A DNA stretch of 63,535 bases, filler included, from Octopus bimaculoides (lineage: Eukaryota): NCBI RefSeq assembly GCF_001194135.2. It is 8 parts of 7 records of this genome, joined end to end, with 100 filler letters (N's around TTAATTAATTAA, not from the genome) between each part and the next. Parts side by side here need not be neighbours in the genome. Positions count along the whole stretch, not along the records: positions 1 to 21,292 come from NC_068989.1; positions 21,393 to 35,144 come from NC_068990.1; positions 35,245 to 41,093 come from NC_068990.1; positions 41,194 to 47,250 come from NC_069002.1; positions 47,351 to 55,417 come from NC_068988.1; positions 55,518 to 57,392 come from NW_026376086.1; 2 more parts are not named here. The stretch is one strand, 5' to 3'. Made by a program: the position numbers and the translations under genes. Below are positions 5,691-56,131 of this stretch, one piece after another (within the stretch, counting starts at the first letter, position 1; each line of letters opens with the position of its first letter). Under the pieces are notes generated by a model. It did not search any database. It saw only the letters and a list, made by a program, of their open reading frames with translations, and had not been told where the DNA came from.

Positions 5691-5751
5691 ATTATACTGA
5701 CGAGTAGAGGTTGTATAATACTACAATAACTACGAAATCATGATCTATAAT
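5691..5751 (+). ncRNA. Minimal type-I hammerhead ribozyme, intact
   Basis: Stem I ATTATA(5691-96)/TATAAT(5746-51); core CTGACGA 5697-5703; stem II GTAG/CTAC with inner TTGTA/TACAA; GAAA 5734-37; palindromic stem III A-TCATGA-T; AUC triplet, predicted cleavage after 5745. Confidence 0.85.
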
Positions 5752-6152
5752 TCAGTCTGTTTTTAAGGAGTTGGCTTTGAGAGTTGCATTTCCTCGCGTT
5801 CGGTAAAAATGTGTTTTTTTATGGTAGTCTGACCTTAGAGTCCCTCATAGCGTCAATCATTATTGTATAGTAATGCCCTTATATAAATNNNNNNNNNNNN
5901 NNNNNNNNNNNNNNNNNNNNNNNNNNNNNNNNNNNNNNNNNNNNNNNNNNNNNNNNNNNNNNNNNNNNNNNNNNNNNNNNNNNNNNNNNNNNNNNNNNNN
6001 NNNNNNNNNNNNNNNNNNNNNNNNNNNNNNNNNNNNNNNNNNNNNNNNNNNNNNNNNNNNNNNNNNNNNNNNNNNNNNNNNNNNNNNNNNNNNNNNNNNN
6101 NNNNNNNNNNNNNNNNNNNNNNNNNNNNNNNNNNNNNNNNNNNNNNNNNNNN

Positions 6153-6655
6153 CACAGCTTCCGTCCTGGAGTTAAGGTAGCCTCCTGGCTCATGTGAGTT
6201 CATGAGAATTATAAATCTTTTTGTTAAAGATAATTTACACAGTCTTGTTCCATTACGACAGGGGTCCACAAGTTTCCAATAATTTCCACCTGATGTTAAA
6301 GGGCGTATGATTGTCCTTTAGGCGCCATACATATGCTGCAAGTGTTGTTGTGTTGCGTCTCTGTGAGACCCTGAAAGAAGATCTGTGGTTGTTCAGGCGA
6401 ATTTTAAATCTGGATTCACAAGATCCGACATAAATTTTAGTTTGTGTCCCTGTGTTGGCATTGATGTTATCGATATTTGTGCTGCTTCTGTTTGAGGCTA
6501 CCTTTCCTTGGTACACTGTAGCCTGGGTATTACTGGGCTACTGGGCATTCATTCTTAATCTTGCATGAACAACCTGCCTCTGTCCATGGCTTAGGAATGC
6601 TAAGTAACATTTTCTTAACATTGGGTGCACAACTGAAAGAGATTCTTAAATTATT
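6153..6655 (-). mobile_element. Penelope-like element 3' fragment (linker, CxC/CP motif, GIY-YIG endonuclease), frameshifted
   Basis: Minus-strand translation NNLRISFSCAPNV...CSCKIKNECP...YQGKV...KIYVGSCESRFKIRLNNHRSSF...TTLAAYVWRLK...FNIRWKLLETC, then RLCKL..TKRFI...YLNSRTE. This is the typical PLE endonuclease C-terminus. Confidence 0.85.
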
Positions 6656-6657
6656 CC

Positions 6658-6838
6658 ATTGCTTGACAACTGATGCTCGTGTGTTTATGCTTCAGTAACT
6701 TAGCGGTTCGGCAAAAGCAACTGATAGAATAAGCACTAAGCTTACAAAGAATAAGTTCTGGGGTTGATTTGTTCGATAAAACCCTTTAAGGTGGTGCTCC
6801 AGCATGGCCACCGTCAAATGACTAAAACATGTAAAAAC
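6658..6838 (+). mobile_element. SINE S2, 3' half
   Basis: TTGACAACTGATG...GATAGAATAAGCAC...GGTGCTCCAGCATGGCC; truncates the PLE fragment. Confidence 0.8.
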
Positions 6839-53431: not shown

Positions 53432-53634
53432 CTAGGCACAAGGCCCGAAATTTTCGGGGAGGGGGCCAGTCGATTAGATCGATCTTAGTACGCAACTGGT
53501 CCTTAATTTATCGGCCCCGAAAGGATGAAATGCAAAGTCGACCACGGTGGAATTTGAACTCAGAACGAAGCGGCAGACGAATTACCGCTAAGCATTTCGT
53601 CTGGGGTGCTAACGATTCTGCCAGTTCGCCGCCT
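53432..53634 (-). mobile_element. SINE S1 (a further partial copy at 53655-53712)
   Basis: Full S1 motif set in reverse complement. Confidence 0.85.
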
Positions 53635-55539
53635 TAATACCATAAATATATCCTTTTCTACTCTAGGCACAAGTACGGAAACTTTTGGGGAGGGAGCCAA
53701 TCGATTAGATCGCGTACATACATCAAGCCAGTGAAGCACTTCCGCAGAGTAAAAAATCATCGCAACCGTATACTCACAGCATAGAGAACCGCCTCTACAA
53801 ATACTCGCATACGTATCCACATACATCACCACTATCACATACATACACACATACGTCGCCGCAATCACATACACTAAAACACCCATAATTTGTCACAATC
53901 ACATCCATTCACTAAAACACACATCACTACAATCACACACACACACACACATATATATATATATATATATATATATATACACACACACTTAAACATACAT
54001 ACGTACCCGCAATCACGTACACAAACTTAAATGCACATGCGCTGCCACAATCGCATACATCCATTTATTCGCACATACAGCACCACATACACACACACAC
54101 AGTCAAAAAACACATGCAACTACACAATCACATATACATTTACTTACATACACTACTACATCACATACATACACAGACATAATAGTGAAGACAACCACGT
54201 ACACCCACTCACAGACACCGTAAAACATGATGATCACAAAAACACATACATGCAATACACATTCGCACACACATACAAACACACACACACACACACACAC
54301 ACACACTGTTTGTTTGCAAGATCTTATTGTAATTTTTGATTTGTATCACTTTTGTTTTGTTTAGATTTTCTTGTATTTTTATCCATTATATTTTTTAATT
54401 TAATTTCTTCTTTTTTTTTTGTTTTGTTTTAGTATATATTTTTGCTACGTATTTTTGTGAAGTTTCGTATGATTTTCGTGTCATTCTTTCTTTCTTCCGA
54501 GGTCAAATGTTCAAACAATGTATAGGTTTGATGTTGCTTTATCGATTGACTTATCTGCTCCTAAATAGTGTGTCTGAAGTGGGTACCCCCCCCACACACA
54601 CACACACGTGCAGGCACACACACATACACACGCACACTCACATCTATATATATCTCATATATATGGCTATGTCAGCTTGTGTTTTTTGCTTGCATGAGTC
54701 TACGCGTAAATATGTTACTATGAATATGTGGGTGGTTTGTGTTTAACGTTTGTTCTGTGTATATAAGTTAGTCTTCTGGCTTCACTGAACACTACACACA
54801 CAAACACATACACACACACACACACACACACACACACACATACACACAGAAGCAGACTCAGACAGACAGACACGCACACACACGAATACACGTACACACA
54901 AACACATATACGCTTACACGCTCACGCATACCAGCGCACATGTATATTAGTGAATTGTGAAGATATAAAATTTAAATTATATATAGGCGTAAAAGAGGTG
55001 TATATATAAGAAATTCGCTTCGCAATACCGTAGTTCCACGTTTCATAATTTGGTTCGGCATCTTAGTCAAGATTCTACTATAAAAGTTTCTGGATGGCTA
55101 GTATCTGGTCAAGGATATTTTGACAAAAGATATACACGGCACACATGAATACACACACACAAACAAACACAAACGCACTCACACTCATATATATATATAT
55201 ATATATATATATATACGTATATACACATTAGATGTGTAACTTTATATCTGAAAACATACATGCACACTCACACACACGCTCATACAAATATACAGATATG
55301 TATACATATACACACACACGAACGTATGTATGTCTATATATATATATATATATATATATATGTGTGTGTGTGTGTGTGTGTGTGTGTGTGTGTGTGTGTG
55401 TGTGTGTGTGTGTGTGTNNNNNNNNNNNNNNNNNNNNNNNNNNNNNNNNNNNNNNNNNNNNTTAATTAATTAANNNNNNNNNNNNNNNNNNNNNNNNNNN
55501 NNNNNNNNNNNNNNNNNCCACAAATCTGGTCGGTGGCTT

Positions 55540-55895
55540 TCAACAGGTTGTCCCGCAGAAATCTCTATGTATACATATGTACATAGATATGCATACATAC
55601 ATATACATATATGTATACATATGTACATATATAGATATATATACATATGTAGCTATATATATATGTATGAAAACTACATAAGGTCCACAGGATTATCATG
55701 CAGATGCACTCTGCATCGACAGCAGATTGCATGCCCAGAATACCGAATGATACCTCTTAGTGAGTATATTGAGAAATGCGCAAAACAAATGCTACCACTC
55801 CTTTCTATCAATGTGCCATTAGAACACCAACACAAATTAGATTAAATAAGGAAACCTTTTTCATTCAAAAATACAAACCCAAACTTAACCATTGC
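55540..55895 (+). mobile_element. PLE GIY-YIG endonuclease 3' fragment (decayed, TA-rich insertion)
   Basis: YENYIRSTGLSCRCTLHRQQIACPEYRMIPLSEYIEKCAK, then after a frameshift KET.FIQKYKPKLN; resembles the PLE C-terminus NYIG.T..LR.R...HRQQI...IP.SEH...E..FI..F.P.LN. Confidence 0.7.
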
Positions 55896-56092
55896 TAACA
55901 CATTTAAATAAGGAAATTCATCACCCCACTGAGAGGGAAAAAAATACAGAACAAAATCATGGTAAATTAATCAAATTCTACCAGCTCCTAGATTTCGATT
56001 ATCTCCCTTATACCGGAAGAAATCCCTAATTACCTCCCCCTATCTAGAACTTTTCTTTTCAGACTGGAGCGAACACATGTTACAATGAAGTA

Positions 56093-56131
56093 GAGAAATT
56101 TGAAAAGACAACACGAAACCGGTTATTTCTC
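56093..56131 (+). ncRNA. Decayed minimal hammerhead in a PLE pseudo-LTR
   Basis: GAGAAAT TTGAAAA G-ACAACA-C GAAA CCGG TT ATTTCTC; 7-bp stem I, palindromic A-CCGG-T, two core substitutions. Confidence 0.6.

Follow-up and report, generated by a model that had tools for sequence, protein, structure and literature searches.

The seven hammerhead ribozyme motifs of the window analysed here, a composite stretch of 63,535 nucleotides (nt) from Octopus bimaculoides (NCBI RefSeq assembly GCF_001194135.2), mark seven families of dispersed repeats (H1–H7). Three of these families (H4 and H5, of Hydra type, and H7, of Neptune type) are the 3' ends of protein-coding Penelope-like elements (PLEs) with a reverse transcriptase (RT) and a GIY-YIG endonuclease (EN), and four (H1, H2, H3 and H6) are closed retrozyme-type units without a detectable gene. 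The explanation that we consider likely is that these are seven unrelated type-I hammerhead families, of which the four gene-less ones are copied in trans by the RT-EN of PLEs. The window is AT-rich (33% GC counting N) and microsatellite-rich, and consists of eight scaffolds joined end to end by seven artificial linkers, so that sequences flanking each linker are not genomic neighbours, and the density of motifs is partly due to this joining. In the genome assembly that was searched (G000; 2.34 Gb in 145,327 contigs), H1–H3 are placed on contig C9, H4 on C10, H5 and H6 on C22, and H7 on C81229. The seven motifs proposed in a first-pass annotation of the window were all recovered in place, as listed below; throughout, positions given as +n are counted from the hammerhead core base C3, and pLTR denotes the pseudo-long terminal repeat of a PLE.

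5691..5751, plus strand: H1 hammerhead; core canonical, stem II long, stem III palindromic (ATCATGAT), cleavage predicted after 5745
11730..11775, minus strand: H2 hammerhead; intact core, stem I decayed in the window copy, family canonical
13872..13916, plus strand: H3 hammerhead; decayed, with C3 and A15.1 altered and stem II disrupted, whereas the majority of the family is canonical
28593..28640, plus strand: H4 hammerhead; decayed in stem II and stem III, G at the cleavage site
43900..43937, minus strand: H5 hammerhead; U4C family-wide, 3-bp stem II, GNRA-like loop
47186..47230, minus strand: H6 hammerhead; core canonical, stem I long and bulged, stem III palindromic (ACCCGGGT), cleavage predicted after 47192
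56093..56131, plus strand: H7 hammerhead, of minimal form and located in the pLTR of a Neptune-type PLE; U3-A8 core, stem II of 1 bp, palindrome ACCGGT

Every motif locus proved to be a dispersed repeat with at least 40 scored matches in G000 (first-look candidates for H1 to H7 numbered 656, 178, 86, 1662, 1258, 1409 and 1389, respectively), which disposes of the earlier proviso that the flanks might be single-copy; a 49-nt H1 core has 35 exact copies, and a 26-nt stretch of the H6 core has 157. Family alignments (12–18 rows each, picked by likeness to the window copy) yielded a canonical core with a self-complementary stem III in the majority of aligned copies of H1, H2, H3, H4 and H6, the stem III of the H2 family having a central wobble. 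Since the H2, H3 and H4 alignments display a canonical core and closed stems, the window copies of these three have decayed; they are probably dead, but the families themselves are not products of chance. The palindromic stem III attributed to several loci by the first-pass annotation thus stands for these family majorities, and as ACCGGT for H7, with one correction: the H4 family has ACAGCTGT followed by A, and the supposed wobble variant ACAGTTGT of the window copy is a mutated ACAGCTGT. The U4C change occurs in 17/17 aligned H5 rows (chosen by likeness, two of the loci overlapping), and U3 with A8, the 1-bp stem II and ACCGGT recur in nearly all aligned H7 rows; U4C is described as a slow natural hammerhead variant (PMC3088659), and the U3-A8 core variant is known from Schistosoma PLEs (PMC4209133). 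As judged by sequence comparison, the seven families are mutually unrelated, as had been claimed, with a single cross-family match at E < 0.01 (48 nt, E 0.004).

The non-coding families are represented in the window by four elements:

5530..5888, plus strand: H1 element; 5'-truncated copy of a ~500-nt unit, its 3' end meeting an assembly gap at the main end site
11593..11786, minus strand: H2 element; old copy (75–82% identity) of a ~331-nt unit
13698..14120, plus strand: H3 element; old (70–76%) partial-tandem copy of a ~407-nt unit, adjoining a (CT)n run
47020..47250, minus strand: H6 element; copy of the 351-nt unit that loses its 5' side where the scaffold ends, with the 3' end at site A (+204) next to (TA)n

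The closed character of these units is evident from the fact that sequence 3' of the hammerhead matches sequence 5' of it at a constant period, namely ~499–500 nt for H1 (a period of ~499 being found in loci L020, L177, L182 and L188), ~331 for H2, ~407 for H3 and 351 for H6. The longest ATG-initiated frames comprise 44, 94, 28 and 62 amino acids (aa) in H1, H2, H3 and H6, respectively. Head-to-tail dimers were found for H6 (L238 and L246, in which the two intact cores are spaced by 351 and 346 nt), as well as for H1 (L187), and one H6 run is longer than two units; H2 and H3 gave partial tandems only, among 15 and 12 loci, respectively. No poly(A) tail was present in those junctions of non-coding units that were inspected. 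A contiguous copy extending past the upstream cut was missing from the first 36 H6 loci, hinting at a 5' barrier at the cleavage site and a ribozyme-cut linear template; this idea was rejected once a targeted search had recovered many H6 copies crossing the cut site as well as true dimers. Older relatives of H1 and H6 (72–82% identity) occur in the flanks of other loci (L075:1985-2680, L090, L247 and L154), pointing to more than one wave of these non-coding families.

The other three loci belong to coding elements, so that the original expectation of many non-coding elements holds for four of the seven families and fails for H4, H5 and H7:

28460..28846, plus strand: H4 element; 3' end of a coding PLE of Hydra type, truncated on its 5' side and terminating at the distal end site next to (TA)n
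43861..44087, minus strand: H5 element; 3' end of a coding PLE of Hydra type, truncated on its 5' side and terminating at the proximal site (+72) next to (TA)n
55666..55895, plus strand: C-terminal end of the endonuclease in the truncated upstream H7 copy (GIY-YIG; Pfam E 1.4e-4, slightly below the cut-off)
56246..56292, plus strand: H7 "tail", between the family end sites +146 and +192
56314..57392, plus strand: downstream H7 copy, N-terminal part of the open reading frame (ORF), with a single stop (codon 37) and truncated where the scaffold ends

All three hammerheads follow RT and EN in the sense direction, with the RT and, C-terminally, a GIY-YIG domain in one frame upstream of the pLTR; in most copies these frames are interrupted, and a complete ORF was not encountered in the loci examined. 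Walking upstream of H4 and H5 leads through a pyrimidine-rich untranslated region (UTR) of 1.0–1.4 kb into sense RT and EN, the EN lying ~1.04–1.09 kb upstream of H4 (L194, L198) and ~1.2–1.4 kb upstream of H5 (L191, L192). In translation, both families have a CxCX5C linker (its second Cys altered in several H5 copies), no CCHH was seen, and the targets are (TA)n; RWK and DKT appear only in four longer homologues (P0001–P0004, 39–47% identity). By their linker and EN motifs, H4 and H5 fit the Hydra clade (PMC8557442). The H7 hammerhead lies ~200 nt past the stop of the GIY-YIG domain. A 503-aa frame in L204 combines RT motifs, a CX4CxxC linker and the H7 endonuclease with CCHH-type residues, and the assignment of H7 to the Neptune type is made by this linker together with CCHH in the C-terminal EN, such a linker being found in Nematis too. 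The order seen in the window (EN end, UTR with hammerhead, tail, ORF start) is the partial tandem usual for PLEs. The ORF at 56425 appeared unrelated to H7 in first searches, which gave no match; this was rejected, as it is the 5' part of the H7 ORF: in L324 the hammerhead region is colinear with the downstream ORF, whose start at 56314 recurs in other loci. Separately, tandem arrays with a 125-nt period match window positions 56250-56330 (H7 tail plus ORF start) at C96932:68-648 and C5:63173674-63174004 and on C143043, C70693 and C25361 of G000; this satellite perhaps originated in what is presumed to be the region of RT start.

The insertion ends of H6 give an indication of the enzyme that mobilises it. 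The alignment ends of H6 (n = 86) include 29 running into gaps, 19 at the reference end, 3 read-throughs and 35 that are resolved; these 35 resolved 3' ends fall at +198 to +204 (site A, 18), at +244 to +250 (site B, 12) or elsewhere (5). The two sites are 45 nt apart and mostly lie against (TA)n, and the 5' ends are variable. A comparable pair of sites is seen in the coding family H7, with 19 resolved ends divided between +138 to +146 (11) and +183 to +192 (8). Exact junction counts in G000 gave 716 instances of site B followed by TA and 42 of site A followed by TA (the A motif differs between subfamilies), and none at a site ~11 nt before A that offers a longer TA microhomology. As B itself has almost no TA match, microhomology with the target does not set the H6 ends, and this candidate explanation was rejected.

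Inverted pairs of H6 copies obey the same two sites. Among 29 independent loci anchored at B, an inverted arm was present in 7 and resolved in 5, all of them (5/5) ending at A; the 30 loci anchored at A had an inverted arm in 9, again resolved in 5, with 4 ending at B and one at +316. Thus, 9/10 resolved pairs from the anchored sets have one arm per site; the arms are 135–640 nt apart in three B-anchored pairs. Beyond these sets, L211 and L154 are A/B pairs and L098 is a B/+219 pair, a few pairs at contig edges or among older relics are without resolved ends, and neither A/A nor B/B pairs of H6 were seen. Coding H5 (sites ~+72 and ~+144) and H4 (~+120 and ~+255) are asymmetric in 4/5 resolved pairs each, one H5 pair being symmetric, and this likeness of coding families to H6 indicates PLE enzymes as the mobiliser. 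A tail is often present at one end only of a PLE insertion (PMC8557442), corresponds to the stretch between two internal RT start sites of an element for which both DNA strands are cut and extended, and is described, along with the two start sites, as PLE-specific (PMC11167929). Most H1 inverted pairs meet gaps, and the ends of H2 and H3 are blurred by age. A few further arrangements of H6 were recorded: direct pairs of identical B ends, 391–491 nt apart (C1:17452252/17452695, C1:195857595/195858086, C2:31796161/31796613 and C2:104147461/104147852 of G000), and two copies sharing the same 5' point in L267, a likely product of duplication at assembly gaps. Folding predicts short hairpins immediately ahead of the end sites of H6, H1, H5 and H7 (L014 at +150 to +255; window 56195-56314; L048 and L025), and on this prediction they could be the RT start signal.

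With somewhat greater reserve than for the overall explanation, we favour a specific account of H6 as an ORF-less retrozyme endowed with a complete cis signal for PLE transposition, sites A and B being internal RT start sites and the inverted pairs representing one start per site on opposite strands of a single (TA)n target. In this scheme, a tandem copy would be transcribed as more than one unit, a PLE RT-EN would nick both strands of a (TA)n tract, and reverse transcription would be primed at internal RNA site A or B, as for the anole element PAc in vitro. Extension of both strands would produce copies that are truncated, partially tandem or inverted and that bear the tail at just one of their ends, and premature stops of the RT would produce ragged 5' ends. 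The hammerheads are predicted to cut poorly as monomers and better as dimers via the palindromic stem III, and dimer cleavage to trim multimers to unit length. Insertion of PAc in vitro does not need hammerhead cleavage (PMC11167929), so the ribozyme may not be needed at the insertion step.

That the H6 hammerhead is maintained as a structure is suggested by covariation, which was counted for this family only: in 37 of 68 distinct copies that were aligned, 97.2% of cells pair and 9/34 pairs are changed on both sides, a level reached by 0/500 shuffles (slid controls, 0–5), with the reservation that these counts share ancestry and are not probabilities. For H6, the stem covariation test proposed at the outset thus came out in favour of the fold. 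Among 65 parsed copies, stem III is ACCCGGGT in 36, ACTCGAGT in 11 and ATCCGGAT in 3, all full palindromes, and the remaining 15 have single changes. Folded as circles and compared with shuffles, H6 and H1 units are strongly self-paired (z = -9.2 and -4.4), with no such excess for H2 and H3 (z 0.0 and -0.7, from single old copies). In one subfamily of H6 (L269:1233-1338, L275:1234-1339, L272 and L286), U4C occurs together with stem III ATCCGGAT and a stem I that is remodelled yet still paired; RNA reads covering the hammerhead often show the letters of this subfamily.

Several points weigh against the explanation preferred here. Of the four units, H6 alone has a firm two-site signature. Among the loci compared, a set that was not genome-wide, none held a coding PLE with sequence in common with H1, H2, H3 or H6, and these units showed no homology to the pLTRs of H4, H5 and H7 or to the other loci of the set. 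The earlier proposal that non-coding units are mobilised by the PLEs of the window survives in part: H6 carries the marks of PLE insertion, but the PLEs of the window share no sequence with the non-coding units and are no more than candidate helpers. Only 1/9 retrozyme dimers were cut in vitro according to a recent preprint (bioRxiv 10.64898/2026.07.22.740005). No RNA run turned up as a match among those listed by the index. In three raw RNA runs with the same species label, of which ~6% each was read and aligned to one H6 unit, 550, 493 and 394 H6 reads were found among 12.9, 12.0 and 11.5 million records, in both orientations, with 59–65% of them continuing into unlike sequence, and the RNA 5' ends suggested for the predicted site did not appear, there being no pile-up of ends at the H6 cut site or elsewhere in the three runs. 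To these points the shared ancestry behind the covariation counts and the lack of a folding excess in H2 and H3 have to be added, as has the selection of coding loci described below. The hammerhead is covered at a far lower read depth than the 3' part, and the H6 reads fit passive transcription of many truncated copies; the libraries were possibly poly(A)-selected, in which case circles would be missed.

This last aspect bears on the possibility, which we hold only tentatively, that the non-coding units are classical retrozymes whose hammerhead cleavage and ligation yield abundant small circular RNA, with a PLE protein copying round the circle. It agrees with our preferred explanation on the enzyme and adds an obligatory circular stage. 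Circles are known for coral, mussel and axolotl retrozymes (PMC7229834), H6 copies cross the cleavage site and exceed two units, the H6 and H1 units fold strongly as circles, and the hammerhead is retained with compensatory changes; the H6 reads, however, are few, uneven, devoid of end pile-ups and mostly joined to other sequence. The 351-nt back-joint, covered by 80, 63 and 51 reads, also exists in genomic copies and so does not show circles.

It is unlikely that all seven families are 5'-truncated pLTR stumps of coding PLEs whose full-length parents were lost in a gappy assembly. Such an explanation is true for H4, H5 and H7, most H6 copies are shorter than one unit, and many assembly gaps lie beside these repeats, but the longest copies of H1, H2, H3 and H6 re-enter their own 3' part at a fixed period instead of an ORF. 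Moreover, among loci with a detected hammerhead, a sense PLE protein match was found upstream in 12/32 for H4, 7/26 for H5 and 25/34 for H7, compared with 0/85 for H6, 1/35 for H1, 1/15 for H2 and 0/5 for H3, a contrast that is biased because the H4, H5 and H7 loci (overlapping ones included) were partly chosen for upstream extension, and for which sampling is thin in H2 (15 loci) and H3 (12 loci). Even less probable is a satellite-like spread of the short units by unequal crossover, or their spread in the manner of short interspersed nuclear elements as passengers of long interspersed nuclear elements (LINEs), the hammerhead being a remnant from a PLE ancestor. The flanks commonly contain fragments of LINEs and DNA transposons, and local amplification by unequal crossover has been raised for retrozymes (bioRxiv 10.64898/2026.07.22.740005); nevertheless, the copies are spread over many chromosome-scale contigs, mostly as less than two units, and their variable 5' ends, two fixed 3' ends and inverted pairs, with no poly(A) in the inspected junctions, form a pattern that crossover does not yield.

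The structural scan shows what can be said of the motifs as single sequences, with local dinucleotide shuffles as controls. A strict type-I descriptor (intact core, stem I of at least 4 bp, stem II of at least 3 bp) found 2 matches in the window, H1 and H6, and 0 in each of 15 shuffles. Permitting mismatches in stem I added H2 (3 matches vs. 0–1 in shuffles), permitting one core change added H5 and one match not on the list of seven (4 vs. 0–3), and permitting two core changes added H7, at the price of 35 matches, 12 of them in one microsatellite, vs. 9–14 in 4 shuffles; H3 and H4 matched at no descriptor setting in the window scan. Against the shuffle control contemplated in the first-pass annotation, H1 and H6 thus stand out under the strict descriptor, and of the seven loci said to fold as type-I hammerheads these two alone are canonical in the window; as single sequences H3, H4 and H7 are not above chance, and are rescued by their families. 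That H3, H4 and H7 are chance matches or dead relics without ribozyme meaning, as their need for at least two core changes and the absence of a hammerhead model from the best 150 of 326 Rfam matches might suggest, is nonetheless barely credible in view of the canonical hammerheads restored by the H3 and H4 family majorities and of the compensatory U3-A8 pair across aligned H7 rows, in the pLTR position expected for a PLE. The Rfam matches were dominated by microRNA models on microsatellites, and a repeat finder gave only microsatellites and N runs among the families listed for the window. Extra core-like strings with C3 at 7073 (minus), 18021 (minus), 25928 (minus), 42705 (plus) and 47409 (plus) failed the structural scan. 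Further hammerhead-like motifs with a palindromic stem III were noted in flanks of the loci (L187, minus strand, place 4731; L160:2898+; L232:1115+; L099, minus strand, place 1068; L247, minus strand, place 2996), and hence the hammerhead families may exceed seven.

Other features of the window are as follows:

21293..21392, 35145..35244, 41094..41193, 47251..47350, 55418..55517, 57393..57492 and 61519..61618: artificial linkers, each a 12-nt motif with stops in all frames between two runs of 44 N
6262..6649, minus strand: fragment of another Hydra-type PLE endonuclease
20490..21290, plus strand: piece of the ORF of a further Hydra-type PLE, truncated where the scaffold ends; matches L198 with 61% identity over 83 aa and P0001 with E 2e-9
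36495..37004, minus strand: DDE transposase fragment (Pfam DDE_3, E 0.006)
58212..58700, plus strand: DDE transposase fragment (Pfam DDE_1, E 1e-10)
47352..47919, plus strand: RT fragment (RVT_1, E 7e-5) at a scaffold start
63003..63344, minus strand: 113-aa frame with no Pfam match

The presence of PLEs in the window, asserted from the start, is supported by the fragments at 55666-57392, 6262-6649 and 20490-21290. The RVT_1 fragment is unrelated to H6 because a linker lies between them. As to the 113-aa frame, it may resemble a fragment of a Helitron protein.

In terms of novelty, the families belong to known kinds (three PLE, four retrozyme-type) and no new class of element is revealed; as families they are probably undescribed. 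PLE hammerhead dimers were reportedly the subject of work by Lunse in 2017. We found no literature on octopus hammerheads, on these families or on tails of retrozymes, with the limit that families of this sort may be listed in the supplements to PMC4209133, to PMC8557442 and to the preprint; octopus was not encountered in the portions of PMC4209133 consulted, and the main text of the preprint mentions neither octopus nor molluscs. PLE dependence of retrozymes was proposed in 2020 (PMC7229834) and has been argued on phylogenetic grounds in the preprint. What is added here is the analysis of ends, in which a non-coding family displays the two-site tail specific to PLEs, as well as inverted pairs that are asymmetric, next to coding PLEs from one and the same genome. 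If the proposed account is true, H6 would provide junction-level evidence, countable in hundreds of copies, for PLE target-primed reverse transcription of animal retrozymes, as well as a minimal template for an in vitro test; the A/B end statistic renders the question of which enzyme moves animal retrozymes testable with a PAc-type assay.

A side-by-side comparison with known systems reveals many shared features and some differences. Like the pLTR hammerheads of metazoan PLEs (PMC4209133), those of octopus have a type-I fold with a short palindromic stem III, belong to many unrelated families per genome, mostly as single motifs in truncated PLEs, form opposite-strand pairs 100–700 bp apart, and include the U3-A8 core variant; they differ in the family-wide U4C of H5 and the 1-bp stem II of H7. 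The Hydra clade of EN-bearing PLEs (PMC8557442) shares with H4 and H5 the C-terminal GIY-YIG, the CxCX5C linker without CCHH seen, the hammerhead near the 3' end, (TA)n targets and inverted truncated copies, the difference being the long 3' UTR of H4 and H5 (~1.0–1.4 kb from EN to hammerhead); the Neptune clade of the same study shares with H7 the RT, the CX4CxxC linker, the GIY-YIG with CCHH-type residues, the partial-tandem layout (EN end, pLTR, ORF start) and (TA)n targets.

The non-coding units resemble non-LTR retrozymes (PMC7229834; bioRxiv 10.64898/2026.07.22.740005) in their non-coding unit of a few hundred nt with one type-I hammerhead, in head-to-tail dimers, GC below 45% and strong self-pairing (H6 and H1), and in their coexistence with coding PLEs, on which dependence has been proposed. 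In contrast to these, the octopus copies are mostly dispersed and shorter than two units, and H1, at ~500 nt, exceeds the range of 170–400 nt; also, the link to PLEs is drawn in the preprint from co-occurrence and pLTR homology in vertebrates, whereas in octopus it is drawn from insertion junctions, no homologous pLTR having been found. Finally, PAc, a Poseidon element of the green anole (PMC11167929), likewise has two internal RT start sites that define a tail (in octopus ~45 nt long in H6 and H7, ~70 nt in H5 and ~135 nt in H4), AT-rich targets, extension of both strands and no RNA-seq ends at the hammerhead site. PAc, however, is coding, with its start sites inside the ORF, whereas in octopus H6 this signature is found in an ORF-less unit.

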